IMG/VR virus record: IMGVR_UViG_3300045988_126140
Span: 69,599 to 133,598 of that record
From: a virus
Length of the DNA stretch: 64,000 nucleotides
Direction: 5' to 3' (one strand)
Shown here: one piece after another, positions 2,941 through 61,670 of the stretch
Layout: each line of letters opens with the position of its first letter
Numbering within the stretch: the stretch's first letter is position 1
Notes under the pieces: model-generated
Told to the model about the DNA's origin: nothing
Database searches by the model: none
Seen by the model: only the letters and a program-made list of their open reading frames with translations
Made by a program: the position numbers and the translations under genes

Positions 2941-2995
2941 TTCTTAATCTCCCTTCTTTATTAATTATTTTAATATCTTTCCACTTTTATTTATT

Positions 2996-3036
2996 TTTAT
3001 AAAACAAAATAGGAGAAGGAATTAATCCTCTCCTAT
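2996..3036 (-). terminator. intrinsic terminator
   Basis: Minus-strand hairpin ATAGGAGA(GGA)..(TCC)TCTCCTAT at 3009..3036, followed by UUUGUUUU. Confidence 0.7.
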
Positions 3037-3125
3037 TTCACACATTATACAAATAGTAATTAGAGTTATAACACACAGCTGGTTTTGTATACGTTTATAT
3101 TATGTGTTTATTTTAAATTTTTATA

Positions 3126-3145
3126 CGCAATATTTTTAAATTGCG
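3126..3145. repeat. palindrome CGCAATATTTTTAAATTGCG (copy 1 of a tail-fibre-associated repeat)
   Basis: Same sequence as 5901..5920. Related coding copies at 7853..7875 and 4935..4955. Confidence 0.8.
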
Positions 3146-3148
3146 AAC

Positions 3149-3283
3149 TTACACTAATGAATCTCCATATCCGTCATAACCATCTTGTTTTAATATATCA
3201 AGTGTTGATTCTTTAAACATTTTTGGTACTTGTTCTATTGTTCTAAGTTTCTTTATAATTAAATTAGCATATATTCTTGCCAT
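3149..3283 (-). CDS. small XkdX-like tail-fibre-module protein (44 aa)
   Basis: Not in the ORF track (<60 aa). ATG overlaps the stop of 3283..3648 (TAATG). MARIYANLIIKKLRTIEQVPKMFKESTLDILKQDGY.. resembles the small XkdX/CD1375-type proteins that end Firmicute phage fibre modules (from memory). Confidence 0.4.
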   Translation of the reverse strand: MARIYANLIIKKLRTIEQVPKMFKESTLDILKQDGYDGYGDSLV

Positions 3284-3648
3284 TATTTAGCACCTCCTTC
3301 TTGTAAAGCTAGAATCATTTCAGTTAATTCTGCTAATGCCTCTTCATGTTCAGTGTCCACATTTTTAAGTTGTGTTATTTTTTCATCTATAGTCAGTTCT
3401 TGTTCTATTAAATCCATTTGTTTTACCGCATACACGATTGTTATTGTTGTATCTTGTTCTGTATATCCTGTTATTACTAGATATTCAGTATCTGCATTAT
3501 AACTTGGTTGTTGGTCTATCACTTCTTTAAATCCATATCTAGTCATTAGTGCAACAGATTTGTTAAAACCTACTATTGTTCTACCATCATTTAATTTGTA
3601 ATTTTGTGGAGCATATTCTAATGCTTCATTATTTAATTTTGCATACAT
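3283..3648 (-). CDS. hypothetical tail-fibre-associated protein (XkdW-like position)
   Basis: 121 aa ORF with SD GGAGG, placed between the fibre genes and the XkdX-like ORF. Confidence 0.4.
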   Translation of the reverse strand: MYAKLNNEALEYAPQNYKLNDGRTIVGFNKSVALMTRYGFKEVIDQQPSYNADTEYLVITGYTEQDTTITIVYAVKQMDLIEQELTIDEKITQLKNVDTEHEEALAELTEMILALQEGGAK

Positions 3649-3661
3649 ATTATTTTACCTC

Positions 3662-4222
3662 CTATTTTTTATAAGAAAATTTACCTGTACCTAAATTATA
3701 AAAATATTGTTGTGTTACTTCATCCCACAAACAAGCTACTCCTTTATTATCTAAGCAGGGTCTATAATCTCTAATAAGTTTATCGTTTTCTGATATTTTA
3801 AAATAATTCAAAATCATTCGTGCATATGATTTATTAGAATTACTGCCAAATATGTATATTGGTTCTGTACTATCGAAATTAAAAACCATACCATCTTCAA
3901 CAGTTTCTACTTCATCTATTGTAAAAGACTTATTTTTACTTTTAATTATATGTGGAACGTTATATTTACAATTAGAAAAATAATACACAACTGAATTTAC
4001 TGTTAATGCATATCTATTATCATAATTTCTAAATCCTTTAATTTGTGAATTACCAAATTCAAAACTTCTATCGCCTAAGGGAGTATAATTAAACTCAAAC
4101 ACACTATTTATATTCGGAACATAATTAGTATTTATATATTGGTTTCCAGAACTCTCTATATAAGATACATAATCTACATTTATTTTATTTTTAACGTTAT
4201 TAAATAATAATTTATGCGACAT
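3662..4222 (-). CDS. hypothetical tail-fibre-associated protein
   Basis: ORF track starts at TTG 4228. ATG at 4222 has the better SD (GGTGGGGTGA). Overlaps the stop of the upstream fibre gene. Confidence 0.5.
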   Translation of the reverse strand: MSHKLLFNNVKNKINVDYVSYIESSGNQYINTNYVPNINSVFEFNYTPLGDRSFEFGNSQIKGFRNYDNRYALTVNSVVYYFSNCKYNVPHIIKSKNKSFTIDEVETVEDGMVFNFDSTEPIYIFGSNSNKSYARMILNYFKISENDKLIRDYRPCLDNKGVACLWDEVTQQYFYNLGTGKFSYKK

Positions 4223-9439: not shown

Positions 9440-9461
9440 AGTTAAAATTTATTAATTATTT

Positions 9462-9971
9462 TTATACACTTGCTTTATCTTCTTCAAATGTCATAAAATC
9501 TCCATTTGTATCAGTACCTATATCAAAAGTTACAGAATAAGTTTGTAAATCTAATGAACTTGTACCAAAGTCTTCAGTTATTTGTGGAGTACAATTAGCT
9601 ATTGTTGCATTTAATATTTTTCTTGTACCATCTGGGAATTTTAATTTCATTTTTCCTGTATAAGTATAAGTAGTAGATGGAGAATCACCTATATGTACTT
9701 TACCTTCTGCATCTTTTGTAGCTCCTAAAGTAACTAAGAACATATCAAAATTCATAACTTCCATTTCTGCTGTGAAAGTCATGGCTTTATTTGCTTTTAA
9801 TGTTATTTTATTTTTACCATCAGCTCTAGCATTTAAAGTGTCTTCTGATTGACCTAAATTAAATGCATTTACATAATCTAATGCTACGTCTTTATCTGTT
9901 CCAGTTTCACCGTTTGGATGAAGTTTCCCTTGCATAGCACCTTCTATTACGAATAAAGTTTCTTGTGCCAT
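9462..9971 (-). CDS. major tail protein, putative
   Basis: 169 aa beta-rich ORF with a strong SD, placed last of the connector cluster and followed by a strong terminator. The call rests on size and position only. Confidence 0.5.
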   Translation of the reverse strand: MAQETLFVIEGAMQGKLHPNGETGTDKDVALDYVNAFNLGQSEDTLNARADGKNKITLKANKAMTFTAEMEVMNFDMFLVTLGATKDAEGKVHIGDSPSTTYTYTGKMKLKFPDGTRKILNATIANCTPQITEDFGTSSLDLQTYSVTFDIGTDTNGDFMTFEEDKASV

Positions 9972-9999
9972 TTCACATTACCTCCATTTTATTAATTAT

Positions 10000-10740
10000 T
10001 TATTCATCCCTCATTAGTCTTGTACCCATATACCAAGGGGGAATTTCTTTACCTTTATATGCTCCTGCAATAGCAAGTTTCCAAGCCAATTCGCAATCTT
10101 CCATTGCTTTCATTGATTTATAAGTGTCTTGTAATTGCCAAGCAGTCCAATTTTTTATTTCTTCATACGTAATTTTTCTCGTATGTATTACTTGTCTTAC
10201 TATTTCTTCAAAATATATAGCATTTTTTTTCATTTGTTTTTCTTTGTATTCTTTTTCATACTTTTCAAATAATGCTATATCTTCAGCCGAACCTTCAATC
10301 TTTTGCTTGATTTCTTTTTTAGGTTCATCATAATACATTATTTCTAAAACAATTTTAGACAATATATTAAAATTGCTATCGTCTATAAAAGATTCAATAT
10401 TATCTTGAGATTTAATAAATATACTATATCCTTTATCTCCACAATTTTTTAACTTTATATCTTTCGTATCATATAAAATCATAAGATATAATATTAAATC
10501 TACTAATAAAGATTTATTCTTTTGAGATAAGGTATAATATATATTAAAAGGCATTTCCACTTCTTCAAAAGCACCATTATTATTCCAATATCGAACCATA
10601 TAAAAAGGCTTTATAAATTCTATACTATCTACCACTTCTATAAAGGTTTGAACCTTGGGTTGTTTAATAATGCCCAAATTAAATTCTTTTAAATCAATAT
10701 CTTTACCAGATAATAATTCTTTAGTGAATTTACATTTCAT
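10000..10740 (-). CDS. hypothetical virion/morphogenesis protein
   Basis: 246 aa ORF in the head-tail joining cluster. Its stop lies in a 15-mer variant. Confidence 0.5.
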   Translation of the reverse strand: MKCKFTKELLSGKDIDLKEFNLGIIKQPKVQTFIEVVDSIEFIKPFYMVRYWNNNGAFEEVEMPFNIYYTLSQKNKSLLVDLILYLMILYDTKDIKLKNCGDKGYSIFIKSQDNIESFIDDSNFNILSKIVLEIMYYDEPKKEIKQKIEGSAEDIALFEKYEKEYKEKQMKKNAIYFEEIVRQVIHTRKITYEEIKNWTAWQLQDTYKSMKAMEDCELAWKLAIAGAYKGKEIPPWYMGTRLMRDE

Positions 10741-13341: not shown

Positions 13342-13365
13342 ATGTTAATTATTAATTATTTTTGA

Positions 13366-14776: not shown

Positions 14777-14817
14777 TATTTATAACCTCCTAATTTTATT
14801 AATTGTTTTTCTTGATT

Positions 14818-15327: not shown

Positions 15328-15352
15328 TATTTATACCTCCTAATTTTGTTAA

Positions 15353-16627
15353 TTATTTTTTGTTTTTCCATTTTTCCAATCTACCACCGTAAGGTGCATT
15401 AGAATCCGTAAATTCTTCATTTGGATTTATTATACCTACTGAATTAGCTTTTCCATGTTTAGTTTTACTAAATGATTGAGCTTCTTTAACTTGTTTAGCC
15501 CACATTATAGCTAATTTTCCTTCATATTCTTCTTTAGATATTTCATGTTTTAATACTGTGTCTTGAAGTACTTTAGCATCTTCTGTATCTAAAGAATATT
15601 TTTCAGTTATAGAATCAATTTCTAATTTAAATTGTTTAGCATCGCTATCAGCTTTAAATTGTTTTAATTCTTCATAATCACTCATGTTTTCTAATTGAGT
15701 TTTTAATTCTTCATATTCAACTTTTAATTGGTCAAAAGCAGTTTTTAATTGTGCATATTTTTCATCTTCTGTGTTATCTTCAACAGAATGATTTTCCTTA
15801 TCTTTATCTTCTTCCTCTTCTGAACAATCTTCTTTCTTTTCTTCAGAATTATCTTGAGAACATTCTTCTTTTTGTTCTTCTTCATCTGGAGTGAAATCTT
15901 CTTGTTGAGTTTCCTCTTGATTTTCAAATTCTTCAGTTTCTTGAACTTCTTGATTTTCAAACTCTTTGTCCATTGTTTCACCTCCCTTTTCTAAAGAATA
16001 AATTTTCTTCATTTTTTCTAATTCAGTTTTAACATCTCCACAAGTGAACAGAGATAAGTTAGCTCCTGCCATAGCAGGTTTAACACCTACACCAAGCATT
16101 GTTATACCTAAAAAAGTAAAATCAGTTATTTCAAAGAATCCATCTTCTCTAAAGCTGAAATCGTCAACATTTATTTCCATAGATACTTCTAATACACCAT
16201 CGTTAGAATCTAATATATCAAGTAATTGTTGGGAATACTCCCTCCATATTAATGCTGTGCAAGATAAATATTTCTTACCGTCTTTTTCTACTTGTGTAAT
16301 TATAGTATCTTCTGGAACAAATCCATAAGCTTTTTCAAGGTATATTAATTGATAGTCATAACCATCTGGAGTATCAGTAGCCTCCATTTTAGTATCATGT
16401 CCACCTAAAACCCATTTGTCATCTTCATTTTTATAAACATGAGCTAATAAGGGTATGCCTCTAATACTTTTTTCAGCACATTTCATTTGTGTTTCTGAAT
16501 CAAACCAAGAACCATTTAAATTATCTTGGTCGTGGCATGCAAGTATTCTACAGGGAACGAATCTACTATCACTTGAAGATTTAAAAACTTCCATTTCACT
16601 ATATAATTTTAAATGTTTATTTCCCAA
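15353..16627 (-). CDS. scaffolding protein, possibly fused to an N-terminal prohead-protease-like domain
   Basis: Long acidic low-complexity centre (EEFENQEETQQEDF..) and a coiled-coil C-terminus typical of scaffolds. TTG start. N-terminal ~200 aa are globular. Confidence 0.45.
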   Translation of the reverse strand: MGNKHLKLYSEMEVFKSSSDSRFVPCRILACHDQDNLNGSWFDSETQMKCAEKSIRGIPLLAHVYKNEDDKWVLGGHDTKMEATDTPDGYDYQLIYLEKAYGFVPEDTIITQVEKDGKKYLSCTALIWREYSQQLLDILDSNDGVLEVSMEINVDDFSFREDGFFEITDFTFLGITMLGVGVKPAMAGANLSLFTCGDVKTELEKMKKIYSLEKGGETMDKEFENQEVQETEEFENQEETQQEDFTPDEEEQKEECSQDNSEEKKEDCSEEEEDKDKENHSVEDNTEDEKYAQLKTAFDQLKVEYEELKTQLENMSDYEELKQFKADSDAKQFKLEIDSITEKYSLDTEDAKVLQDTVLKHEISKEEYEGKLAIMWAKQVKEAQSFSKTKHGKANSVGIINPNEEFTDSNAPYGGRLEKWKNKK

Positions 16628-21617: not shown

Positions 21618-21739
21618 AATTATTAATTATTTTATAAACTTAGCCTTTCTTACCATGTATATCACTATACATTTGACCGATTTTACCCTATTTTAAATAT
21701 AAGCACTTATACTTTACTTATATTGAGACATATCTTTTT

Positions 21740-38527: not shown

Positions 38528-38568
38528 ATAATCATGATAAAAATAATTAATAAATAGGAGTGGTAAAT

Positions 38569-39517: not shown

Positions 39518-39574
39518 AAATAATTAATAAAGTTATTTATAATGATGACAAAATCATATATTATATAAATATAA

Positions 39575-39610: not shown

Positions 39611-39681
39611 AAAAATAATTAATAAATTTTTTAAAAAGCTTTTGACAATGATAATAAAATATATTAATTGGAGGTTTTAAA

Positions 39682-40220: not shown

Positions 40221-40343
40221 TTCCTCAAGTTCTAGATTGTCTAAAATGATACTAAAAATAATTAATAATACTGCCTATATTTATAGGTGATATTGCTCAA
40301 AACTATCAAATGATAGTAAATAATATTAAAGGGGATGGAATAT

Positions 40344-41168: not shown

Positions 41169-41179
41169 TAAATATTATT

Positions 41180-41206: not shown

Positions 41207-41679
41207 TTGTCTATAAAATGATAATGATTTTCATTAACATTAAATATTAACTCCAGAAGTTATTTTTATAAAAGCTCAATAAAATCAACCTCTTAAACGC
41301 CCTTCTAAGGCGTTTTAAAATGATTAAGGTATAAATACCTTGTAGGCTATCGAATTCCTTTATAATGGATTATATAGGATATTTTATATTTTTATCTATA
41401 ATTGATAATACTTTTCATTTATATATTTATTCTCATTTAAAAATGATACTAAAATATATTAATTTATGAATTGATAATAAATATCAAATAAAATTATTTG
41501 TTATTGAGAATAATAATCATAACTATAAAAATTAATTTATATATAAAATAATATATTTTTAAAAAAATTTATATTTATTATTGATTTATAAAATTGAATA
41601 TGATATTATATAATCATAGTAGTAAATAAAAAGTTTTAAAAGATTATAAAAATAATTAATAAAATTAATAAAAAAGCTC

Positions 41680-42278: not shown

Positions 42279-42313
42279 AATTATAAAAACAATTAATAAA
42301 TTTAAAAAAGCTC

Positions 42314-42651: not shown

Positions 42652-42714
42652 GGGAATTAATCCCTTCCAGCTCTTAAAAATAATTAATAAGATAATTGAA
42701 AGGGGACAAATGAT

Positions 42715-43569: not shown

Positions 43570-43574
43570 TATTA

Positions 43575-43608
43575 TAGGTTTATTGGTTTATCCTTTAAAA
43601 ACCAGCAT
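43575..43608 (+). ncRNA. covarying stem-loop with conserved 11-nt loop (copy 2)
   Basis: AGGTTTA TTGGTT tATCCTTTAAA AACCAG (stem 43583..43588 / 43600..43605), followed by the 15-mer. Confidence 0.5.
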
Positions 43609-43675
43609 AAAAATAATTAATAAATTTTTTAAAAATTCTTGACAATGATAGTAAAAATAATTAATAAGATAGCAC

Positions 43676-43705
43676 TTGACTTTTATATGGGTTGAGTGCT
43701 ATAAT
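43676..43705 (+). promoter_or_regulatory. sigma-A-type promoter
   Basis: TTGACT-18-TATAAT with TG extension. Confidence 0.65.
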
Positions 43706-43732
43706 ATAATATAAGATAACTGAAAGGGGAAA

Positions 43733-44227
43733 ATGATGATGAATAATATTAAAAGATTCTTAAAATTATTAAATGACGAAACAATAGAAGGCAAAATAAT
43801 AGACTGCTATTGCACTCTTCATAAACAAGCATGGTATGATGGAAAAATAAAAACTAAAATAGTACTAGATTTAAATGGAGTAATAACAGCTACAAATGAA
43901 GTAAAAGATAATCAATTACTAATAATAGAACTCAATGAATATGTAGAAGTACCAGAGACAGAATTTGGTAACATTGAATTACAAGATGATTATCAAGAAT
44001 TTGTAAATTATCTAATGGAAGAATGTGAAGAAATATTTGAAAGTGATATAGATAAACAGCAGTATATTTGGGATAATGCAACATGGAATGAATATAAAGA
44101 TTTCAATGGATTAGGTTATGAGGATGAAGAACAATATGTTTGGAATTATATTTGTGATATGGAAGATGCAGATTTTATATATAATGTTATATCAAAATTA
44201 ATAAGCCAACTAGAAATGATGGTATAA
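43733..44227 (+). CDS. acidic hypothetical protein (paralog of 45645..46193)
   Basis: Shared N-terminus (K/E)(R/K)FL..LND(E/D).I.G.I..Y..LH...W.DG.IK..I.L..G. Very D/E-rich C-terminal half. Confidence 0.7.
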   Translation: MMMNNIKRFLKLLNDETIEGKIIDCYCTLHKQAWYDGKIKTKIVLDLNGVITATNEVKDNQLLIIELNEYVEVPETEFGNIELQDDYQEFVNYLMEECEEIFESDIDKQQYIWDNATWNEYKDFNGLGYEDEEQYVWNYICDMEDADFIYNVISKLISQLEMMV

Positions 44228-44303
44228 ACTATTATATGGTAGTATGGAAATATCTATACTACCATATAGAAAAAAGATAATAAAAATAATTAATAAATAG
44301 CTC

Positions 44304-44333
44304 TTGACAAATATATCTACAATGATATATAAT
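44304..44333 (+). promoter_or_regulatory. sigma-A-type promoter
   Basis: AGCTCTTGACA-18-TATAAT. Confidence 0.65.
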
Positions 44334-44365
44334 ATAACTATAATAATAAATAAGGAGTTGATAAT

Positions 44366-44617
44366 ATGAAACAATGCACAGGAGATTATTTATATAAAGG
44401 TTTCTTAATTAATTTTAGCGAATACGACCAAGCTTGGAGATTAGAACCTACATTACAATTAACAGGAGATGATTCCGACACAGCAATAGATTTTGCTATA
44501 GAGTATAACAATGATAGTAAAAAATTTAGAACTATCAATCAAGCTAAAAGATATATAAAAGATAATTACAATGAATTAGTATTAGAAATTAAAAAATTAT
44601 ATGAGGATTTTAAATAG
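44366..44617 (+). CDS. hypothetical protein
   Basis: 83 aa. SD AAGGAG. Stop in the hairpin GAGGA..TCCTC followed by AGCTC. Confidence 0.7.
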   Translation: MKQCTGDYLYKGFLINFSEYDQAWRLEPTLQLTGDDSDTAIDFAIEYNNDSKKFRTINQAKRYIKDNYNELVLEIKKLYEDFK

Positions 44618-44664
44618 TCCTCAAGCTCAAAAGTCAATGATGATAAAAATAATTAATAAAATCA

Positions 44665-44723: not shown

Positions 44724-45575
44724 ATGATGGAAAAATACATTAAAAGTCCGATGAATTACACAGGGGGCAAAGGTAAATTATTAAGTCAAATATTACCACT
44801 ATTTCCAAAAAATATAAATACTTTTGTAGATTTATTTACAGGTGGTTGTAATGTAGCAGTAAATGTATCAGCTAATAAAATAATAGCTAATGATTTATGC
44901 ACTCAAGTAATAAATACATATAAAGGAATACAAAATAATACTACAGAAAAAGCTATCGAAATGATAGAAAAAATAATTAACGAATATGATTTAAGTAAAG
45001 AAAACAAAGAAGGTTATTTAGAATTAAGAAAAGCTTACAATGATGGTAATAAAGAATGGCATATATTCTATACTTTATTAGCTTATTCATTCAATAATCA
45101 AATTAGATTCAATAAAAAAGGCGAATTTAATATGCCTTTTGGAAAGGGTAGAAGTAGTTTTAACTCAACTTTAAAAAAGAAATTTGAAGACTTTTCAGAC
45201 GCAATTCATAATAAAAATATAAAATTTACAAATAACGATTTTAAAAAATTAAATATAGATAAATTAAAGAATGATGATTTTGTATATTTAGACCCACCAT
45301 ACTTAGTAACAGAAGCTACTTACAATACAGGTTGGAATGAAGAAACTGAAAAAGAATTATTATCATTATGTGACAGATTAAATGAAAAAGGTATAAAATT
45401 TGCAATATCTAATGTATTAGAACATAATGGAAGTAAAAATGAAATATTAATAAACTGGAGCAAAAATTATAATATAAACTACTTAGATTATAATTATTCA
45501 AATTGTAATTATCATAAAAAAGATAATGGACATAAAAGTATAGAAGTTTTAATTACTAACTACAAAAATAATTAA
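44724..45575 (+). CDS. dam: N6-adenine DNA methyltransferase (Dam/D12 class), orphan
   Basis: N-terminal NYTGGKGKLL..FVDLFTGG and catalytic VYLDPPY. No adjacent restriction gene. The stop lies inside the 15-mer. Confidence 0.8.
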   Translation: MMEKYIKSPMNYTGGKGKLLSQILPLFPKNINTFVDLFTGGCNVAVNVSANKIIANDLCTQVINTYKGIQNNTTEKAIEMIEKIINEYDLSKENKEGYLELRKAYNDGNKEWHIFYTLLAYSFNNQIRFNKKGEFNMPFGKGRSSFNSTLKKKFEDFSDAIHNKNIKFTNNDFKKLNIDKLKNDDFVYLDPPYLVTEATYNTGWNEETEKELLSLCDRLNEKGIKFAISNVLEHNGSKNEILINWSKNYNINYLDYNYSNCNYHKKDNGHKSIEVLITNYKNN

Positions 45576-45583
45576 TAAAACCC

Positions 45584-46193: not shown

Positions 46194-46241
46194 ATAACCC
46201 TCTAGCTCAATCAATGATGATAAAAATAATTAATAAAATTA

Positions 46242-46633: not shown

Positions 46634-46688
46634 CCTTCCAGCTCTTGAAATGATAGTAAAAATAATTAATAAATTTTTTAAAAAGCTC

Positions 46689-47228: not shown

Positions 47229-47332
47229 TAAAAAGATTATCAAAATAATTAATAAAAATAATTAATAAATTTTTTAAAAGCTCTTGGCAATGATAGTAAA
47301 AATAATTAATAAATAATATCAAGGGGGTAAAA

Positions 47333-48169: not shown

Positions 48170-48769
48170 ATGATGAAAGAAACTTGGACTGAAAAAGAAA
48201 TAAGAAGTTATATGAAGAACTTTGTTAATGACATGGACGAAGAAGACAAAATGGTAATAGGGGATATAATTGATGCAATTCCAATATCAGTAGACGGACG
48301 ACTTAAAAATAGTCTAGGTTACTTCTCTGGTATATATAAAAGAAGTGGAGAATTTGTAGAACCTGTAAAATTTAAATTTTCCAAACGTATTAACTGTTAT
48401 GACGATAACACTATAAAACATATTATAAATCACGAACTTTTACACTTATTATCAGACAAGAAGTATGGTAAAAGTACAAGCCATAACAAAGAATGGAAAG
48501 AACTTTGCTGTAAATATAGGATAAATGATGATGAATTCTTTACTCCTAATTTAGAATTAGAAAAAGATTATCACCGTTATCATATATATTGTAATGAATG
48601 TTATAAATTAGTAGGTGTAAGAGACAGATTATCAAAAGAGAAAATAATTCAATTGTTATTATATGGAAGACATCAAGATGATTATGGTAAATTAAGAATA
48701 TATGATAATAAAGAAAAAGGATATATTAAATTAAACAATATAATGGTAAATGATGGTGAAAATAATTAA
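48170..48769 (+). CDS. SprT-like zinc metalloprotease
   Basis: GYFSG..FKFSKR.. and HIINHELLHLL (HExxH), then GK.TSHNKEWK..C. ATG 48170 after GGGGTGG. The stop lies inside the 15-mer. Confidence 0.6.
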   Translation: MMKETWTEKEIRSYMKNFVNDMDEEDKMVIGDIIDAIPISVDGRLKNSLGYFSGIYKRSGEFVEPVKFKFSKRINCYDDNTIKHIINHELLHLLSDKKYGKSTSHNKEWKELCCKYRINDDEFFTPNLELEKDYHRYHIYCNECYKLVGVRDRLSKEKIIQLLLYGRHQDDYGKLRIYDNKEKGYIKLNNIMVNDGENN

Positions 48770-48777
48770 TAAAACTG

Positions 48778-49388: not shown

Positions 49389-49425
49389 TAGTTCAAAAAG
49401 ATTGTAAAAATTATTAATAAATCTA

Positions 49426-51346: not shown

Positions 51347-51384
51347 AATTGACTATAAAAATAATTAATAAAGGAGATGATAAT

Positions 51385-52194
51385 ATGAGTAACAAAGTAC
51401 AAAAATTATTTGATAAATTAGTAGAAAAATATAATATGAGAGCAATAAAAATAGGTGATGAAACATGGTATGCGATGAACGATTTACCATTAGATAGAAA
51501 AGCAATAAACAGAAAAATGAGTGACCTTAGAAAAAACTTATCTGGTAACGGTGATTTTAAATATACTCCAAACTTTGTAGAGCAAAACACAAGATTAATA
51601 ACAAATTCAACGGTGATTTTAAATCACCTTAGAAATTTTGATAAAGTTCATAATACAGGAGAAATGTTTGGTAACTTTACAATGATAAATTACATAGTTA
51701 TGACAAGTAGACTTGGACACGAATATAAAATAGAAATGATAAAAATTTTAGACGAAATAAGAAAAAATGATTTCTATGTAGATGACAATATATCAAAAGA
51801 ACAATTAAACTCGCTTCAGAACAAAGTTAATAAACTAAAAGATAGATTACATTATGAAAGACGTAGAAAGGCTTACGGGGCTACTCAAATAGTTAAAAAA
51901 ATAAATATAGATAATTTGTTGCCAAGTACATTATTTAGATACCTAGATGAATATTTGAATTTAGGAGATTATATAATAGTAAATAAAAATAGAAGATTTA
52001 GACCTAATGATAATTTTGTTAACAAATGTGCTGATTTAGGTGTAGTCAGAATTGGAGTAAACAATAATATAATATTCTTTAGTGAATTTGCAGAACAAGT
52101 AAATAGAAACAAAGACATCCTTAATATATTGAAAATAATTAATAAAGAAGAATTACAAATAAGAGAAAAGGGAATTGAAAACAGAATTAAATAA
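51385..52194 (+). CDS. putative antirepressor-like DNA-binding protein
   Basis: ATG 51385 after AAGGAG; the track start at 51349 is inside the 15-mer. N-terminal region is KilA-N/Bro-like (weak). One 15-mer copy lies in frame at 52132. Confidence 0.4.
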   Translation: MSNKVQKLFDKLVEKYNMRAIKIGDETWYAMNDLPLDRKAINRKMSDLRKNLSGNGDFKYTPNFVEQNTRLITNSTVILNHLRNFDKVHNTGEMFGNFTMINYIVMTSRLGHEYKIEMIKILDEIRKNDFYVDDNISKEQLNSLQNKVNKLKDRLHYERRRKAYGATQIVKKINIDNLLPSTLFRYLDEYLNLGDYIIVNKNRRFRPNDNFVNKCADLGVVRIGVNNNIIFFSEFAEQVNRNKDILNILKIINKEELQIREKGIENRIK

Positions 52195-52233: not shown

Positions 52234-52319
52234 GCTTTATTTTCAAAATAATTAATAAATTATGAATATTTAAACTCCATTTTGTATATAATATAGTAAA
52301 GAAAATTAATAAAAAGTAG

Positions 52320-53312: not shown

Positions 53313-53373
53313 TTAGTATAAGAAAGGAGTTGATGCAAATTGAGTGTAGAATAAAAATAATTAATAAAATCAG

Positions 53374-53402: not shown

Positions 53403-53463
53403 TAATATTATAAATAATCAATAAAATATTAATAAAAATAATAAATAAAGGGGATGGAATATT

Positions 53464-54416: not shown

Positions 54417-54444
54417 TTGATTTTAAAAATAATTAATAAAACAG

Positions 54445-54501: not shown

Positions 54502-54813
54502 ATGATAAATATGATAATAGAACCTATGAACTGTGCAGGGGGAAATGTAATCGAAAAAAATAAAGAAAGAATTAGAAATATAAAACTAGAAATACAAAGA
54601 GGTGGTATTTCGATAAATAATCTATATAGTAAATATAACTACGAAGGATTTAAAACTTTTTTATGTAACAATGTATTATTTGAAGATATACCAGATTCAG
54701 AAGTTATTAGGATATATAATTGTATAAACAAGGAGCAGTTTAAAGAATGGTATATGAGTAGAGGGACTAGAGGTGCGTATGATTTAATAGCATATTATAA
54801 AATTTATAAATAA
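54502..54813 (+). CDS. hypothetical protein
   Basis: 103 aa. SD AAGGGGGA. Start is 54502 or 54511. The stop lies in a 15-mer variant. Confidence 0.65.
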   Translation: MINMIIEPMNCAGGNVIEKNKERIRNIKLEIQRGGISINNLYSKYNYEGFKTFLCNNVLFEDIPDSEVIRIYNCINKEQFKEWYMSRGTRGAYDLIAYYKIYK

Positions 54814-54825
54814 TTAATAAAGATG

Positions 54826-55272: not shown

Positions 55273-55470
55273 ATGAAATTAATAGAAGCATTTCAAATAG
55301 TTACTGATTCTATAGAAGACGATATAAAATTTTGTAAGGAAATTAACAATGACTTTGACGATGAGTTTCTACATGAAGTTATTGATTTCTTAGAAACAAG
55401 ATGCGATGTATTGAATCGTGCTGAACAAAGGGAGAGAAAATGGAATCAACGTAGAAATTTAGAAAAATAA
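55273..55470 (+). CDS. hypothetical protein
   Basis: ATG 55273 after AAGGGGGA. 65 aa. The stop lies in the 15-mer. Confidence 0.6.
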   Translation: MKLIEAFQIVTDSIEDDIKFCKEINNDFDDEFLHEVIDFLETRCDVLNRAEQRERKWNQRRNLEK

Positions 55471-55492
55471 TTAATAAAAAAGGGGGATTAAA

Positions 55493-56451: not shown

Positions 56452-57063
56452 ATGTTAGATAAATTTAATTTAGAATCATTATATATATTTAATAAAAACA
56501 AATACAAAGTCTACAATGGTACAATTCCTAATTGGGTTGAAATATGTCACGGATTAATAGTTGAAGTGGAAAACGAATATATAGGTAATATTAAAGTAGA
56601 AGGCGAAGAGTACGTTGTATTTCCTTATAGTTGTAATAAAATAGAAGTAGATGTTAAATCCGCAGAAACAGAAAATGTATATGGAAATGATATTATAAAT
56701 GACGTTATAGGAACAATACAAACAAAATCAAGTTTTCAAGGTGGTAAACCTAAAGAATTTGAAGGAAAAATATTTTTTGGTATAGATAAAAATGATATTT
56801 GGACAGACGCAGGATTTTCATTATTAGATAATTTAGAAGATAAATCTATAAATAATCACTCAAAAGAACTTACATTTAATGTAAATAAGAAATATTATTT
56901 TGATGTGAATTTAGTTGATAAAAAAGACATAAAAGATTGGATGTATAAATGTAGTGGAGTTAATGTCGATGTAGCTGATGTAAATAAAGGATTTGTTTTA
57001 GATTCGTGGGAAGATGAATATCATGTTGTAGTTAGAAAATGGTGTAAGTTGAAAAATAATTAA
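56452..57063 (+). CDS. hypothetical protein
   Basis: 203 aa. SD AAGGAGG. The stop lies inside the 15-mer (..LKNN*). Confidence 0.7.
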   Translation: MLDKFNLESLYIFNKNKYKVYNGTIPNWVEICHGLIVEVENEYIGNIKVEGEEYVVFPYSCNKIEVDVKSAETENVYGNDIINDVIGTIQTKSSFQGGKPKEFEGKIFFGIDKNDIWTDAGFSLLDNLEDKSINNHSKELTFNVNKKYYFDVNLVDKKDIKDWMYKCSGVNVDVADVNKGFVLDSWEDEYHVVVRKWCKLKNN

Positions 57064-57121
57064 TAAACTTATTGACGAATAATATTGAAAACTAAATAAT
57101 TAATAAAAAGGAGGAGAAAAT

Positions 57122-57904
57122 ATGAGTGAAAAAACAATAGGTAGAACAGGTGAAACAGCTTATAATAAATTTGGAAGCGAGATGATAATTATTGATTATA
57201 AAGGATGTATGGACGTAGATGTTTATTTTCCAGAATATAATTGGACCTTTAAAAATGCACATTATAGTAGTTTTAAAAAAGGAAATATTAAATGCCCTTA
57301 TGAGAGGAGATATTATGAAGTTGGATATTTAGGAGAAGGAAAATATAAAGTAAGTGAAAATGGTAAACATACCAAAGTTTACCAAACATGGCACGATATG
57401 TTGAGAAGATGCTATGACGAAAAAAGTCTTAAAAGAAATCCTACTTATATAGGCTGTAAGGTAGATAAAGAGTTTCATAATTTTCAAGAATATGGAGAAT
57501 GGAGCGAAGATAACTATTATGAAATAAAAGAAGAAAAGATGTGTCTTGACAAAGACATATTAGTTAAACATAATAAAATCTACTCACCAGAAACCTGTAT
57601 ATTTGTACCGCAAAGAATAAATACTTTATTTACAAAAAGAGATAGTAAAAGAGGAAATAATCCAATAGGTGTTTCAGATTATATAAATGGTAAGTATGTA
57701 GCACAATGTCATATAATTAATCCCGAAACAGGAAAATCAAAATATGAATGTTTAGGTGTTTATGAAACTCAACTTAAAGCTTTTGAGGTGTATAAAGAAT
57801 TTAAAGAGAAAAATATCAGACAAGTAGCTGACTATTACTTTGGTTTAATCCCTAACAAACTATACAATACTTTATATAATTATGAAGTTGAGATAACAGA
57901 TTAA
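57122..57904 (+). CDS. HNH_3-like/AP2-like homing-endonuclease-family protein, paralog 5 of 6
   Basis: Same blocks. 65 nt (57239..57303) are identical to 63936..64000 in paralog 6. Confidence 0.55.
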   Translation: MSEKTIGRTGETAYNKFGSEMIIIDYKGCMDVDVYFPEYNWTFKNAHYSSFKKGNIKCPYERRYYEVGYLGEGKYKVSENGKHTKVYQTWHDMLRRCYDEKSLKRNPTYIGCKVDKEFHNFQEYGEWSEDNYYEIKEEKMCLDKDILVKHNKIYSPETCIFVPQRINTLFTKRDSKRGNNPIGVSDYINGKYVAQCHIINPETGKSKYECLGVYETQLKAFEVYKEFKEKNIRQVADYYFGLIPNKLYNTLYNYEVEITD

Positions 57905-57933
57905 AAATAATTAATAAAATTTATTAGAAGGTA

Positions 57934-57995: not shown

Positions 57996-58586
57996 ATGAA
58001 AGAAAAAATTTCAAATGAACAAGGAAGATTGATGATAAAAATAACAAAGGGGATATGGAATAAACGATTTAAAACATTCTCTCTATTTAAAGACGATATG
58101 CAATCATATGCTTATATGCAAATGTGTAGTGCTATAAAAAGATATGATGAAAGCAAAAATGTTTCATTAAATACTTATCTCAATGCTATTGCATGGAAGA
58201 GCATGACAAAATATGTGAGAGACTTTGTATATAAAAATAAAGGTAAAGTTATTTCTGCTGAAGGAATATATACAATGAATGATACATCACTGGATTGTAG
58301 AAAGGAATATAATAAAATAATTAGTCATTTTCTTAAGGAAGATATCAACTATGAAAATATTGAAAAACAAGAGTTTATAGATAAATTTAATAATATAGTT
58401 GAAGAGAGAAATAAACATACGAGCCGAAAAATAAATTTAGATGAACTACATTTCATAATTAATAAACTATATGAAGGTTACAATAAATGCGAAATCAGCA
58501 AAATGTTAGGAGTAAGTAGTACAAATGTTAATAAAAAAGTAAATAGAATAAGAGATATAATTACAGAAATAAAAAATAATGAATAA
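57996..58586 (+). CDS. sigma-70-family sigma factor (small, ECF/group-5 size), paralog 1
   Basis: Region-2-like ..YDESKNVSLNTYLNAIAWKSMTKYVRD.. and region-4 HTH ..CEISKMLGVSSTNVNKKVNRIRDII.. 196 aa. Confidence 0.65.
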   Translation: MKEKISNEQGRLMIKITKGIWNKRFKTFSLFKDDMQSYAYMQMCSAIKRYDESKNVSLNTYLNAIAWKSMTKYVRDFVYKNKGKVISAEGIYTMNDTSLDCRKEYNKIISHFLKEDINYENIEKQEFIDKFNNIVEERNKHTSRKINLDELHFIINKLYEGYNKCEISKMLGVSSTNVNKKVNRIRDIITEIKNNE

Positions 58587-58591
58587 AGCAA

Positions 58592-58651: not shown

Positions 58652-58858
58652 ATGAAAACATTAAAATTAACAGACCAAGAGCTAGAAACGTTAATATTGA
58701 TATTGAGTGAAGCTAAAGTATGTCTATCTGGTTGTATTGTTGAAGAATATCAAGACGAAGATTTTGATTGCGAGGATTGTCCATTTGAGCAAAGTAAATG
58801 GGATATTTGGGAAAAACTAATGGAGATTAACTGTGAAGACGACCCAGCTTATAAATAA
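58652..58858 (+). CDS. hypothetical Cys-containing acidic protein
   Basis: ATG 58652 after AGAGGTG. 68 aa. The stop abuts the 15-mer. Confidence 0.6.
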   Translation: MKTLKLTDQELETLILILSEAKVCLSGCIVEEYQDEDFDCEDCPFEQSKWDIWEKLMEINCEDDPAYK

Positions 58859-58897
58859 AAATAATTAATAAACTAATGGATAATAGGGGGATAAGTT

Positions 58898-59470
58898 ATG
58901 AATAAAACAATGATAAGTGATACAGAATATATAAATTTATCTTTAGAATTAACAGGAAAAATTTACAACAAAAATTATAATGGGTTTTCTTCTATTAAAG
59001 AGGATATGATTCAACATTCGTTACTGGAACTTTGGAAATCTAGAAATAAATTTGATGAGTCTAAAGGGGATATTAAAAAATTTATTTGTGCAATTATATA
59101 CAATTCATACAATGTATATTTAAGAAACACTTATTATAAAGATAAAGATATGCTTACATCTATGGATGTTAATATATCTGACGATGGAAAAGAAGAGACT
59201 ACTCTATTAGATACCATAGGAAAAATAGATTTGAAATATAAAGATATTGAATATATGGAATTATTAAAAGAATTTGATGATGTAATTGCAATGCGTAATT
59301 TGGGGAAATACAATAAGATTAATGCAGAAGAATTACATATAATCATGAATATGTTGATGGATGGATACAAACAAAATGAAATATCTAAAACATTAAATGT
59401 AAGCAGTGTGACAATTAATAAAAAAATTAATTTAATCAAGGACGTAATAAAAGAAATTAAAAATAACTAA
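58898..59470 (+). CDS. sigma-70-family sigma factor (small), paralog 2
   Basis: Collinear with 57996..58586 (..FDESKGDIKKFICAIIYNSYNVYLRN.. / ..NEISKTLNVSSVTINKKINLIKDVI..). 190 aa. Confidence 0.65.
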   Translation: MNKTMISDTEYINLSLELTGKIYNKNYNGFSSIKEDMIQHSLLELWKSRNKFDESKGDIKKFICAIIYNSYNVYLRNTYYKDKDMLTSMDVNISDDGKEETTLLDTIGKIDLKYKDIEYMELLKEFDDVIAMRNLGKYNKINAEELHIIMNMLMDGYKQNEISKTLNVSSVTINKKINLIKDVIKEIKNN

Positions 59471-59486
59471 TAAAGGAGAGATAAAT

Positions 59487-60203: not shown

Positions 60204-60236
60204 TAAGACATTGAAGTAAAAATAATTAATAAAGTA

Positions 60237-60265
60237 TTGACTTTTATCCAAAAAAGTTATATAAT
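60237..60265 (+). promoter_or_regulatory. sigma-A-type promoter
   Basis: TTGACT-17-TATAAT. Confidence 0.7.
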
Positions 60266-60290
60266 TATAAGTATAAGGAGGATTGATATT

Positions 60291-60461
60291 ATGTTTAACA
60301 TTAACGATTGGATTTATTACCGACCAAAGAAAGGTAAAAGAAAAGAAAAAGTAAAGGTTATAGGGGTTACTTATGACTTGACTAACTTTAAGTATATACT
60401 AGAAACTAAAGACGAAAGAGTTATCGAGAATGTATCTGTTACTCAATTAAGCGATAGATAA
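60291..60461 (+). CDS. hypothetical small basic protein (56 aa)
   Basis: ATG 60291 after AAGGAGG; the track TTG at 60237 is the promoter -35. The stop abuts the 15-mer. Confidence 0.6.
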   Translation: MFNINDWIYYRPKKGKRKEKVKVIGVTYDLTNFKYILETKDERVIENVSVTQLSDR

Positions 60462-60489
60462 AAATAATTAATAAAAGGAGAGATGAATT

Positions 60490-60669
60490 ATGATGGAAGA
60501 ATTAATAGAAAAAATGGAAAGATTGGAAGAGTTAGTAATAAATACTATATGTGATAGTCAAAGTATATGCAATTATTTTTGTAATGATTGCGATGTGCAT
60601 AAAGATATAAATGAAATAAAAGAAGAATTTGAGGATTTAAAACAGTTATTAGAATTATCAAATATGTAA
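60490..60669 (+). CDS. hypothetical small protein (59 aa)
   Basis: Not in the ORF track. SD AAGGAGAG. Central CDSQSICNYFCNDC. Confidence 0.5.
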   Translation: MMEELIEKMERLEELVINTICDSQSICNYFCNDCDVHKDINEIKEEFEDLKQLLELSNM

Positions 60670-60695
60670 AAATAATTAATGAAGGAAGTGATAAC

Positions 60696-61448
60696 TTGGA
60701 AGAATTAGAAACAAAAGATGTTATAATAATAAAAATGGAAAAAGAAAAAATAGTAAAACAAGTAATAAAACCACCCTTCATTTTTGAAACAAACCAAAAT
60801 TCAATAGTCATTCCAACTAAAGAATTGATAAAAATGAAGGATAGTGACTTTAGAGTTTTACTTGGAATAAGTGGATTAACTAATTGTGAAGATGTAGAGC
60901 AAGAAGGTAATAATGCTAGATACATAGATTTAAAGAAATTAGATAAGTATGTTATAGATTTGACCAAAACTATAGGTATAGATATATCTAATTTTAATAA
61001 AAAAATTAGAACAATGTTAAGAAAAAATTCAGATGAATTTAAACTGATACAATATATAAACGATAAAGGAAATAAAGTAAATTGTTATGAGATTAATTAT
61101 GAAAGTGGTGGATTTGTAACAATACCTAAAGCTAAAGCTGAAAGAGCCTTGTTAACATTAGGAAATAATCCTATTAAAATGTATTGCAATTTATTATGGT
61201 TGTGTCAATTTGAAGGTAAATTTAAACCTACTCATGTTACACAACCAACATTAGCTACATTAATGGGATTAAGTCCTAATAGTGAAAGAATAGTTAAGGC
61301 TAGTATGCAGACATTAATAAATGAAGACTTTATAGAGGTAAATAAGATTAAACAAGCAGTTACAGTTATAGATAAAAATGGATTACCTGTAACACAAACT
61401 AGAACTAAACTAGAGTATAATATAATAGTAGAAGAAGAAAATTTTTAA
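60696..61448 (+). CDS. hypothetical protein with winged-helix-like C-terminal half (replication-organizer-like?)
   Basis: TTG start after GAAGGAAG. ..THVTQPTLATLMGLSPNSERIVKASMQTLINEDFIEV.. looks wHTH-like. Confidence 0.4.
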   Translation: MEELETKDVIIIKMEKEKIVKQVIKPPFIFETNQNSIVIPTKELIKMKDSDFRVLLGISGLTNCEDVEQEGNNARYIDLKKLDKYVIDLTKTIGIDISNFNKKIRTMLRKNSDEFKLIQYINDKGNKVNCYEINYESGGFVTIPKAKAERALLTLGNNPIKMYCNLLWLCQFEGKFKPTHVTQPTLATLMGLSPNSERIVKASMQTLINEDFIEVNKIKQAVTVIDKNGLPVTQTRTKLEYNIIVEEENF

Positions 61449-61670
61449 GCGTAAATTGAAGTGAAACTGAAAATTTACTCTATAATAATCTATAATAATA
61501 TCTATAAGTACTCTATAATAACATCGCACTTTTATATGGTGGTGGGTGGAATTTAGGTAGGGTAAAAATGGAAAAAAGTAATAGCTGAATGGTAAAATTT
61601 GCCTAACTGTTGAAATTACTAGCTTTAAGGAATATAATTAAAAATAATTAATAAAATAGGAGGAGATATT

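Follow-up and report, generated by a model that had tools for sequence, protein, structure and literature searches.

An AT-only, strand-oriented 15-mer at gene junctions of a predicted gut phage-plasmid: candidate core of a promoter-early stem-loop-like linker and recombination joint

Introduction

What keeps one short sequence almost unchanged, and pointing in the direction of transcription, at gene junction after gene junction of a viral element? The question is raised by a 64,000-nucleotide stretch of the IMG/VR virus record IMGVR_UViG_3300045988_126140 (positions 69,599 to 133,598; the whole stretch is called the window here), which is, judging from its Rep_3/ParM backbone, the likeness of its portal protein and its synteny with the Clostridioides difficile phage-plasmid LIBA2945, about half of a predicted ~135 kb phage-plasmid of an uncultured human-gut Firmicute. 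The window has a G+C content of 25% and two divergent gene arms, and the sequence in question is an AT-only 15-mer, AAAATAATTAATAAA. We show that this motif is a polar, junction-specific and selected sequence, and that gene cassettes were lost, gained and reordered at its copies among relatives of the element. Our preferred reading, to which we give an even chance, is that the motif forms the core of a reiterated regulatory linker resembling the promoter-early stem-loop (PeSL) elements, mobile regulatory cassettes of T4-type myoviruses (Arbiol et al., 2010, PMC2839356; Comeau et al., 2014, PMC4122927), and that it may double as the homologous-recombination joint of a variable arm rich in orphan open reading frames (ORFans). 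An initial annotation of the window, made by inspection of the letters, had described the motif, likened it to dispersed phage operators and named a PeSL-like recombination joint as a secondary alternative. Its observation is confirmed here and its interpretation is partly supported, with the secondary alternative now giving the best fit.

Results

A polar motif at gene junctions

Counting both strands, the window holds 38 exact copies of the 15-mer, whereas dinucleotide-preserving shuffles of it have 0.02 on average and never more than 1, in line with the earlier estimate of far fewer than one chance copy. Thirty-two exact copies are on the plus strand, all within 35839-61655 and all at the coordinates given in the initial annotation. 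The minus strand carries six, all within 2957-29420, where five had been claimed; the copy at 24048, inside the coding sequence (CDS) 23397-24524, had been missed. One-mismatch copies number 18, compatible with the earlier figure of at least 15, and the examples named for them were right in all eight plus-strand cases and in three minus-strand cases, the remaining one (24791) having two mismatches. With up to two mismatches allowed there are 79 matches in the window, compared with 14.7 +/- 4.0 expected. Not one exact or one-mismatch copy is antisense to its local arm, so that this earlier claim holds for both classes. Among the two-mismatch matches, the sole one antisense to an arm is at 44401, and those at 35396 and 35451 lie on the minus strand of the gene-free central region, where polarity is undefined.

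In-register alignment of the copies extends the conserved unit to a 17-mer, TA plus the 15-mer, with the TA prefix present in 124 of the 214 distinct contexts collected for the family. The initial annotation had reported a frequent 5' extension, AATGATAGTA; this is exact at only a few copies, and what did hold of the claim is that conservation continues 5' of the 15-mer, in the form of the TA prefix. Variation is tolerated at motif positions -2, -1, 1, 2, 5, 8 and 15, which leaves a near-invariant core, AA-N-AATTAATAA. As previously noted, the motif has no real dyad or hairpin and is not a terminator, since its only self-complementary stretches, read from the sequence, are the overlapping 6-mers TAATTA and ATTAAT. 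A role as a three-frame stop was ruled out by direct computation: the 17-mer has stop codons in two frames only, the third reading KIINK, and it does not belong to the ~3% of intergenic 17-mers in the window that do have stops in all three frames. The motif was not found, on either strand, in the relevant searchable literature, Rfam gave no match at gathering score anywhere in the window, and comparison by eye with the boxes of host transcription factors (Fur/PerR, IHF, CodY) revealed no convincing resemblance.

The copies avoid genes. Of the 56 with at most one mismatch, 52 fall outside the CDS calls based on open reading frames (ORFs), and the four others probably include at least one further intergenic copy (51358). 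Two exact copies are intragenic, at 24048 (minus strand) and 52132 (plus strand), of which only the latter had been recognized. The motif marks 36 of 44 junctions in the right arm (82%) and 11 of 33 in the structural, left arm (33%).

Register with promoters and ribosome-binding sites

Two placements relative to expression signals, one at the Shine-Dalgarno sequence (SD) and one at a TTGACA -35 box, had been described from inspection; both were recovered and are commoner than listed. Among the 56 copies, 22 lie 3-16 nt 5' of a TTGACA-N16-18-TATAAT-like promoter and 17 lie 0-10 nt 5' of an SD, the other 17 being in further contexts, among them copies before terminators, after terminators, in tandem and, in two cases, within genes. 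The ratio of exact to one-mismatch copies is 16:6 at promoters, 11:6 at SDs and 11:6 elsewhere. Nearly all promoters of the right arm that match 11-12 of the 12 consensus positions have a motif copy just upstream, and a second copy between promoter and gene occurs at only ~4 of the 22 motif-headed promoters. Copies just downstream of a promoter are limited to 61641, 3 nt past a -10, and 35839. The stop codon of the upstream ORF is contained in 17 of the 56 copies, and 20 of them have a stem-loop of -7 kcal/mol or below within 60 nt upstream, as against 9% of background windows. Most junctions are without intrinsic terminators.

The distances are constrained at the level of single nucleotides. 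Among the 214 family contexts, 70 are promoter-headed, and the gap between motif and -35 box is either 3-8 nt (n=39, mode 4) or 13-18 nt (n=31, mode 15-16), with no case at all of 9-12 nt. The two promoter-gap classes are therefore one helical turn apart: copies of the gap-4 class occupy about -54 to -40 of the promoter, those of the other class lie ~11 nt further upstream, and the filler of the gap-15 class is TTTTTTAAAAAGCTC. The SD-adjacent contexts number 91, and in 75 of these the gap to the SD is 0-3 nt. The motif is the best-conserved part of intergenic modules of 60-90 nt that are homologous between junctions; the repeat families D5-D20 span the whole series of motif, TTGACA, TATAAT, SD and ATG, and a second word, ATGATAGTA, is common to the promoter spacers and to the 5' flank of the motif.

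The same distances bear on the proposal, also made in the initial annotation, that the motif works at the level of RNA. In polycistronic transcripts it would then be a translation enhancer or standby site, or a site at which an endoribonuclease separates the cistrons just 5' of each SD. Such a function would suit the SD-adjacent class, which is the largest and mostly abuts the SD, as well as the strict sense polarity and the unstructured nature of the motif; with so few intrinsic terminators, read-through transcripts would carry it. It does not explain why 70 contexts lie upstream of promoters, 70-90 nt from the next SD, and obey a helical-face rule, because forbidden gaps of 9-12 nt make sense only on double-stranded DNA. 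Furthermore, the copies at 9448, 13348 and 41158 precede terminators and not genes, and no Rfam family is matched in the window. An RNA-level signal is thus improbable, as it cannot explain the strict helical phasing to the -35.

Conservation and polarity in relatives

Relatives were found by scanning IMG/VR with the 17-mer, followed by protein-anchored fetches, and labels such as L118 stand for their contigs or loci. At least 16 were obtained, with contigs of 113-140 kb, 75-96% DNA identity to the window and at least 95% identity in Rep. Exact copies number 12-19 per 12-20 kb of right arm in every one of these relatives, and all are sense. In 300 kb of family loci, 216 of the 229 exact copies are sense, nine are ambiguous and four antisense, three of these four sitting in unrelated giant-virus contigs; the expectation that the copies would follow the gene strand beyond the window was thereby borne out. 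The motif field extends at least 10 kb past the window (L162). LIBA2945 has no abundant oriented k-mer and lacks the motif despite its backbone synteny, and contigs with a distantly related Dam methylase, probably from unrelated phages, have no comparable word either, which indicates a lineage-specific expansion of the motif. Intermediate relatives with a co-varying motif were not found, the Rep query returning only contigs at least 95% identical and the ParM query a single contig.

The arms diverge at ~34.4 kb, where three perfect TTATCCACA DnaA boxes (~34343, ~34366 and ~34536) lie exactly at the sign change of the GC skew, within an ORF-free stretch of 2.2 kb, the probable origin of the plasmid mode. 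The strand of the motif flips at this region in the window and in 16 of 16 relatives, and transcription and replication are co-oriented everywhere we looked. For this reason the motif could in principle be a fork-polar replication signal comparable to Chi or KOPS and not a signal for gene expression; with arms diverging from the origin where the skew flips, polarity to transcription and polarity to replication are inseparable within the window. A fork signal would require neither the almost exclusively intergenic location (52 of the 56 copies outside CDS calls) nor a nucleotide-level register with -35 boxes and SDs, and we consider this the least probable of the alternatives.

Cassette exchange at motif copies

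The comparison with relatives also shows what happens at the copies in evolution. Breakpoints, defined as internal ends of alignments to relatives at 85% identity or more, are intergenic in 51 of 61 cases (84%) in the right arm, and 43% of these intergenic breakpoints are within 10 nt of a motif copy, compared with 24% under an intergenic-only null (p=0.002), as the coincidence with synteny breakpoints suggested at the outset would predict. The left arm shows no motif association (1 of 15). A null of uniform positions was discarded, as the eight-fold enrichment that it yields is misleading; under the intergenic-only null the right arm retains ~1.8-fold and the left arm none.

Clean presence/absence polymorphisms give a sharper picture. 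Among 27 of them, at least one edge is within 25 nt of the motif in 18 and both edges in 11. The short allele keeps a single motif copy, and the flanking alignments overlap by 8-49 nt. Five cassettes illustrate this in full: 39131-39626, 40270-41172 (with the Rha/ANT gene), 42692-43668, 43669-44660 and 58588-58872. The third and fourth of these, adjacent in the window, are also exchanged in position: L121, L122, L125 and L153 have the order [43653-44660][42688-43645], the reverse of that in the window, and the edges of the swapped blocks are the motif copies at 42677, 43654 and 44646. Order permutations were likewise seen in L118, L119, L147 and L158, with motif copies at some block edges. These indel and permutation edges on motif copies support the recombination-joint reading. 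Some crossovers fall 40-60 nt inside the common promoter module (for example at 45619/46301); crossovers are thus not confined to the motif, which points to an exchange that is homologous and not site-specific.

This last point weighs on another explanation, according to which the motif is a site-specific recombination site, used in an integron-like array by a XerC-like recombinase, or the target of multi-copy HNH endonucleases. The cassettes are indeed co-oriented and bounded by one short conserved site, and the array contains two integrase-family genes, which encode XerC-like tyrosine recombinases (49488-50390 and 52376-53248), and 5-6 HNH paralogs. However, the motif read from the sequence has no inverted binding arms of the kind that a tyrosine-recombinase core site needs, and the 8-49 nt overlaps show crossovers reaching into neighbouring promoter homology. 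The HNH paralogs (PHROG 953; 47333-48115, 50534-51346, 53464-54240, 55493-56269, 57122-57904 and from ~63820 onward) are 73-78% identical to one another in DNA; motif copies flank each of them, and in relatives other cassettes stand in the place of several. Selection should act against an endonuclease target and would not conserve it; homing at the motif was ruled out, given that every HNH gene has an intact motif on either side, so that these genes do not disrupt a target. Site-specific use of the motif is accordingly very unlikely. All copies with at most one mismatch are collected in Table 1.

Table 1. Motif copies with at most one mismatch, the pair of cassettes with inverted order, and the motif-free central region
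Feature	Position	Strand	Context
Exact copy	35839..35853	+	16 nt 5' of P35870 -35; 22 nt 3' of P35788 -10
Exact copy	35954..35968	+	adjoins SD of gene 35974-36342
Exact copy	36371..36385	+	SD of gene 36403-36846 at 4 nt; upstream stem-loop
One-mismatch copy (T5C)	36881..36895	+	12/12 consensus promoter 36900 at 4 nt
One-mismatch copy	37093..37107	+	indel and permutation edge in L118, L119, L147
Exact copy	37366..37380	+	12/12 promoter 37397 at 16 nt; upstream stem-loop
Exact copy	38540..38554	+	5' leader, adjoins SD of gene 38560-39078
Exact copy	39116..39130	+	12/12 promoter 39135 at 4 nt; left edge of cassette 39131-39626 (absent from L118)
Exact copy	39517..39531	+	gives stop codon of gene 39203-39517
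Exact copy	39612..39626	+	followed by T6A5GCTT and TTGACA (gap 15); right edge of cassette 39131-39626
One-mismatch copy	40255..40269	+	left edge of Rha/ANT cassette (absent from L118)
Exact copy	41158..41172	+	holds stop of Rha/ANT 40335-41168; followed by terminator 41180-41199; right edge of Rha/ANT cassette
Exact copy	41649..41663	+	12/12 promoter 41680 at 16 nt
One-mismatch copy	42286..42300	+	12/12 promoter 42314 at 13 nt; upstream stem-loop
One-mismatch copy	42677..42691	+	left edge of cassette 42692-43668 (absent from L121; order swapped in L121, L122, L125, L153)
Two adjacent cassettes, 42692-43668 and 43669-44660	42692..44660	+	order inverted in L121, L122, L125, L153
Exact copy	43610..43624	+	followed by T6A5 and TTGACA (gap 14)
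One-mismatch copy	43654..43668	+	promoter 43676 at 7 nt; edge common to both swapped cassettes
Exact copy	44283..44297	+	12/12 promoter 44304 at 6 nt; strong upstream stem-loop
Exact copy	44646..44660	+	promoter 44665 (Dam methylase cassette) at 4 nt; swapped-block edge
Exact copy	45565..45579	+	holds stop of Dam gene 44724-45575; promoter 45584 at 4 nt
Exact copy	46223..46237	+	TTGACT promoter 46242 at 4 nt; upstream stem-loop
Exact copy	46659..46673	+	promoter 46689 at 15 nt; left edge of 1.4 kb cassette absent from L120, L121
Exact copy	47242..47256	+	2-nt overlap with next copy
Exact copy	47255..47269	+	followed by T6A4GCTC and TTGGCA
Exact copy	47299..47313	+	SD of HNH paralog 47333-48115 at 9 nt
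Exact copy	48759..48773	+	holds stop of 48161-48769; 12/12 promoter 48778 at 4 nt
One-mismatch copy	49407..49421	+	promoter 49426 (XerC-like gene) at 4 nt; after hairpin 49355-49382
Exact copy	51358..51372	+	adjoins SD (gap 0), after HNH paralog 50534-51346
Exact copy	52132..52146	+	inside CDS; stop-free frame presumed
Exact copy	52245..52259	+	directly 3' of terminator 52206-52224
Exact copy	53354..53368	+	promoter 53374 at 5 nt; homology to L006, L122, L123 stops exactly here
One-mismatch copy	53435..53449	+	adjoins SD of HNH paralog 53464-54240
Exact copy	54426..54440	+	promoter 54445 at 4 nt
One-mismatch copy	54807..54821	+	holds stop of 54502-54813; promoter 54826 at 4 nt
Exact copy	55464..55478	+	holds stop of 55267-55470; SD of HNH paralog 55493-56269 at 3 nt
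Exact copy	57053..57067	+	holds stop of 56452-57063; TTGACG at 4 nt
One-mismatch copy	57093..57107	+	adjoins SD of HNH paralog 57122-57904
Exact copy	57904..57918	+	gives stop of HNH paralog 57122-57904; promoter 57934 at 15 nt
One-mismatch copy	58573..58587	+	holds stop of 57996-58586; left edge of cassette 58588-58872 (absent from L053)
Exact copy	58858..58872	+	gives stop of 58643-58858; right edge of cassette 58588-58872
One-mismatch copy	59460..59474	+	holds stop of 58898-59470; adjoins SD of pentapeptide-repeat gene 59487-60203
Exact copy	60219..60233	+	promoter 60237 at 3 nt
Exact copy	60461..60475	+	gives upstream stop codon; adjoins next SD
One-mismatch copy	60669..60683	+	gives upstream stop codon
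Exact copy	61641..61655	+	3 nt 3' of P61610 -10; SD of Bro-N gene 61671-62369 at 2 nt
Motif-free central region	33760..35790	none	arms diverge and motif polarity flips here; holds DnaA boxes
Exact copy	29406..29420	-	adjoins SD of gene 29123-29392
Exact copy	27794..27808	-	followed by stem-loop; intergenic, 5' of gene 27036-27584
Exact copy	26440..26454	-	gives upstream stop; SD of 391-aa gene 25243-26418 at 6 nt
Exact copy	24048..24062	-	within metallophosphatase CDS 23397-24524
One-mismatch copy	21619..21633	-	~60 nt 5' of gene 20578-21558; indel edge in L062
One-mismatch copy	15345..15359	-	holds upstream stop; SD of 14818-15327 at 3 nt
One-mismatch copy (T5C)	14795..14809	-	SD of 13883-14776 at 3 nt
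One-mismatch copy	13348..13362	-	followed by terminator-like hairpin
One-mismatch copy	9988..10002	-	holds upstream stop; SD of 9462-9971 at 2 nt
Exact copy	9448..9462	-	gives stop of 9462-9971; followed by terminator, then TnpB insertion
Exact copy	2957..2971	-	after terminator; SD of 2476-2940 at 4 nt

The element and its genes

The left arm, on the minus strand, encodes a LuxR-type helix-turn-helix (HTH) protein labelled 'sigma factor' in PHROGs, an HU-like protein, a metallophosphatase, a terminase-like protein, a portal and tail proteins. The right arm, on the plus strand, consists of many small genes, mostly without a PHROG or Pfam family, and includes Rha/ANT, Bro-N and Dam methylase genes, the two integrase-family genes, the HNH paralogs and the gene of a pentapeptide-repeat protein, besides many ORFans. 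The region between the arms contains a Rep_3 initiator (30273-31229), an FtsK-like ATPase (31881-32999) and the ORF-free stretch. A ParM/Alp7A-like actin ATPase gene at 62540 and the gene next to it, for an 85-aa protein (region 62540-63707), likely form a plasmid-segregation operon inside the right arm, which has no motif copy in its upstream region and none at the junction of its two genes. Neither the motif nor consensus promoters were found at Rep, the origin, the FtsK-like gene or the ParM operon. The portal protein shares 30-33% identity with its counterparts in phiCD211 and LIBA2945, C. difficile phage-plasmids of ~130 kb, the second of which is also syntenic with the window in its backbone. 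Nucleotide searches found no close relative in annotated phage and plasmid collections, and the sole genomic match of the window is a human-gut metagenome-assembled genome classified as 'uncultured Firmicutes'.

The 391-aa HTH protein (25243-26418, minus strand) raises the question of whether the motif is itself a promoter, in which TAAAAATA or AATAAT would be a -10-like element read by this phage sigma-like protein to produce middle or late transcripts beginning just 5' of each SD. The protein matches PHROG 5767 'sigma factor' with E = 2.5e-73, and many structural-arm genes lacking a sigma-A promoter have an SD-adjacent copy in front of them; the motif also bears a resemblance to the T4 late promoter, TATAAATA. 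Nevertheless, the 'sigma' label comes from PHROGs only, as Pfam and PDB searches return a LuxR-type HTH alone (E = 0.002 and 0.39), and this weakens the case. The same protein is encoded by the motif-free LIBA2945, transcription starting 0-3 nt from the SD would leave almost no leader, the fixed spacing of 4 or 15 nt to sigma-A -35 boxes would be unaccounted for, and several left-arm operons that start after terminators have no copy (intergenic regions at 24584 and 23396). We therefore regard a dedicated promoter as quite unlikely. A second conserved box, TCATAGGTAATTT-N14-17-GTTAATA-N3-4-TAATATA(A)G..GGAGGTGGT, is found at 29470-29560 and 26940-27030 (sense on the minus strand), 5' of two early left-arm genes; it may represent a different promoter class, perhaps one for the 391-aa protein.

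Several other features were observed along the window. Between the origin and the first rightward promoter, the region 35000-35620 contains at least four Spo0A-type '0A boxes' recognized by eye (TGTCGAA/TTCGACA at ~35005, ~35347, ~35378 and ~35553) and a near-match at ~35617, which by analogy with phi29 suggests that control of the lytic arm is tied to sporulation. Two extended 'intergenic' stretches of higher GC content, 20257-20577 and 13510-13882, have the appearance of structured RNA, such as group I introns or other RNA elements that are mobile or splice themselves, with no Rfam match at gathering score; the former separates the terminase-like ORFs 19204-20256 and 20578-21558, DNA around it is missing from L056 and L062, and L142 carries a 1.1 kb insertion at ~13670. 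An IS605-family TnpB gene (8168-9406, minus strand; OrfB_IS605 with a Cas12f-like TNB domain) is inserted in the tail-gene arm, where it adjoins the 3' side of motif copy 9448 and its terminator, and a structured region of 171 nt downstream of it may be an omega-RNA or the right end. The pentapeptide-repeat protein (59487-60203), whose gene has a 15-nt periodicity over ~300 nt, is possibly a DNA mimic or anti-defence protein. Finally, a stem-loop, AAGTTCGCAATTTAAAAATATTGCGAAC, occurs in identical form at 5860-5930 and 3080-3150 (sense on the minus strand), 3' of two tail-region genes and without a U-tract.

Discussion

In the reading that we prefer, the PeSL-like linker would mark the 5' edge of an expression unit. 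At promoters, the motif would stand in the UP-element position of a sigma-A promoter, or one helical turn upstream of it with the T6A5 filler in between, and may act in cis on double-stranded DNA through the C-terminal domain of the RNA polymerase alpha subunit (alpha-CTD) or a bound factor on one helical face. Copies adjoining an SD would instead supply an unstructured, A/U-rich leader. Motif and flanking module, being identical across junctions, could then be a preferred substrate for homologous exchange, probably by a single-strand-annealing recombinase of the phage and not by a site-specific enzyme. Cassettes with perfect flanking copies should spread best, which would help to keep the copies identical, so that near-perfect identity might be maintained by the function in cis together with cassette-level selection for homology with recipient joints.

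Several observations weigh against this linker-and-joint reading. Conservation of the 15 motif positions equals that of the -35 and -10 hexamers, although the AT-rich tracts of PeSLs are not invariant, and such exactness would rather be expected where a protein recognizes a specific sequence. The similar ratios of exact to one-mismatch copies across contexts suggest one context-independent reader, and not the alpha-CTD in one place and the ribosome in another. On the side of recombination, the ~1.8-fold enrichment of breakpoints over the intergenic-only null is modest, and a conserved island tends by itself to end BLAST alignments; the coincidence of both edges in 11 of 27 polymorphisms compares with ~25% expected from the very high density of the motif. 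Orthologous copies are 95.4% identical, compared with 83-87% for their flanks, but this excess is modest and inflated by the picking of copies intact in the window. The stem-loops upstream are mostly without a following U-run and would be poor terminators. In addition, the left-arm copies persist without motif-linked breakpoints, hence recombination cannot be the whole reason for the copies.

The exactness of the sequence brings forward the operator analogy of the initial annotation, which retains some plausibility, with no direct support, no repressor homologue recognized in the window and copies placed next to the -35 and not over it. It is less likely than the linker, but possible, that the motif is the operator, or 'stoperator', of a dedicated putative phage regulator that would recognize an asymmetric 17-mer at ~80-100 sites per genome. 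Such a regulator, monomeric or tandemly bound like L5 gp71 or P1 C1, would act on initiation at promoter-adjacent sites and block elongation at SD-adjacent sites in an orientation-dependent manner, thereby silencing or coordinating the lytic arms, and this would be compatible with a role of the same sites as joints. Dozens of near-identical, asymmetric copies in a single orientation, in short intergenic spaces or overlapping stop codons, are published hallmarks of stoperators (PMC9283540). The equal sequence constraint in promoter, SD and other contexts, a tolerance confined to the edges of the motif and to position 5, and a helical phasing to the -35 that fits a protein contacting RNA polymerase all point in the same direction. 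The same may be said of the absence of the motif from maintenance modules that need expression in the carrier state (Rep, origin, FtsK-like gene, ParM operon), the temperate type of the phage-plasmid, with its Rha/ANT and Bro antirepressor-like genes, and the lineage-specific occurrence of the motif, absent from the syntenic LIBA2945. On the other hand, no repressor-like protein was recognized in the window with Pfam, PHROGs or NCBIfam. The sites precede the -35 without overlapping it, a placement that suits an activator or UP element, and promoters matching 11-12 of 12 consensus positions need no activator. With a copy between promoter and start codon at only ~4 of 22 motif-headed promoters, a pure roadblock would leave most cassettes unsilenced. 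No lineage was found in which motif and regulator co-vary, since 16 of 16 Rep-bearing relatives share the same 15-mer.

By analogy, both roles could be united, the 17-mer being the site of a putative orientation-sensitive phage regulator, convergent with stoperators and present at ~80-100 sites, that doubles as a universal cassette joint; this proposal is more tentative again. If it is true, regulation and evolvability would be coupled through one sequence, and if the operator reading is true, this would be the first stoperator-like global silencing system outside the actinobacteriophages. Should the PeSL-like linker and joint be the right explanation, linker-mediated shuffling, documented for PeSLs so far in T4-like phages of Gram-negative hosts, would be a general solution, reached independently in a very different virus, the phage-plasmid of a gut Firmicute. 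An invariant 15-17-mer at ~80% of the accessory-arm junctions would then offer a handle for delimiting cassettes and predicting exchange points, as well as for tracking the flow of ORFans in gut metagenomes. As a portable junction that brings a stop codon and a promoter-upstream element or SD leader, the linker might also become a tool for engineering low-GC phages.

Relation to described systems

Four systems lend themselves to comparison. The C1 operators of P1, about 20 in number, are 17-bp asymmetric AT-rich sites at many promoters of a phage-plasmid and overlap the promoters that they control. The present motif is likewise an asymmetric AT-rich site dispersed across phage-plasmid promoters, but its copies, placed upstream of promoters or on SDs, exceed that number by far and are strictly polar, and no C1-like protein was recognized in the window. 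UP elements bind the alpha-CTD at -38 to -59 of strong sigma-70/sigma-A promoters and are degenerate in sequence. The motif agrees with such A+T-rich DNA in its position and in the helical face that it keeps to, being AT-only and located at ~-40 to -56 of very strong promoters, with a second position one helical turn upstream; degenerate UP elements explain neither the exact identity over 15 nt nor the copies that adjoin SDs or terminators.

The stoperators of cluster A mycobacteriophages, known from L5 gp71 and from the structure of the TipsytheTRex repressor (PMC9283540), come closer. Like them, the motif is short and asymmetric and recurs in more than 20 near-identical copies in a temperate element; these occupy small gaps between genes or overlap start or stop codons, and they have one orientation to transcription in both arms, an orientation that is confounded here with the direction of replication. 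Unlike stoperators, the copies do not overlap early lytic promoters, as 3-18 nt separate their ends from the -35 that follows, and at most promoters no further copy stands between promoter and gene. They are also roughly 3-4 times more numerous, no repressor was recognized in the window, and the sites coincide with cassette-exchange joints within longer homologous promoter modules.

The closest likeness is to the PeSL elements. Both are reiterated intergenic composites of ~60-100 nt that combine a stop codon in an AT-rich tract, a sigma-70/sigma-A promoter, a stem-loop, an SD and an ATG, both occur in dozens of copies per genome, concentrated beside ORFans in a hyperplastic region, and in both, closely related genomes differ by indels that leave a single chimeric element, while the cassettes themselves are reshuffled. 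The crossover in PeSLs has been proposed to take place in the AT-rich part (PMC2839356; PMC4122927). Taken feature by feature, a consensus early promoter, in many cases an 11-12/12 match, accompanies 22 of the 56 window copies and 70 of the 214 family contexts, the rest having none; the AT-rich tract upstream of the -35 holds the upstream stop in 17 of 56; concentration in the ORFan-rich hyperplastic arm is reflected in 82% versus 33% of junctions; and element-bounded indels with a chimeric copy are documented by the five worked examples, with a modest statistical excess. The differences are equally clear. The AT-rich part is here essentially an invariant 15-17-mer in strict register with the -35 (4 or 15 nt), more than 40% of the copies are promoter-less and directly on an SD, also in the structural arm, and the stem-loops, in PeSLs a terminator or attenuator but here present at about a third of the copies and mostly without U-tracts, lie upstream of the AT-rich core and not within the promoter. 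Moreover, the element is a siphovirus-type phage-plasmid of a Firmicute, with a portal like those of phiCD211 and LIBA2945 and a Rep_3 and ParM plasmid backbone, whereas PeSLs belong to T4-like myoviruses of Gram-negative hosts. Since virus and host differ from those by which the PeSL family is defined, we class the motif as an analogue or variant of the PeSL and not as a member of the family.

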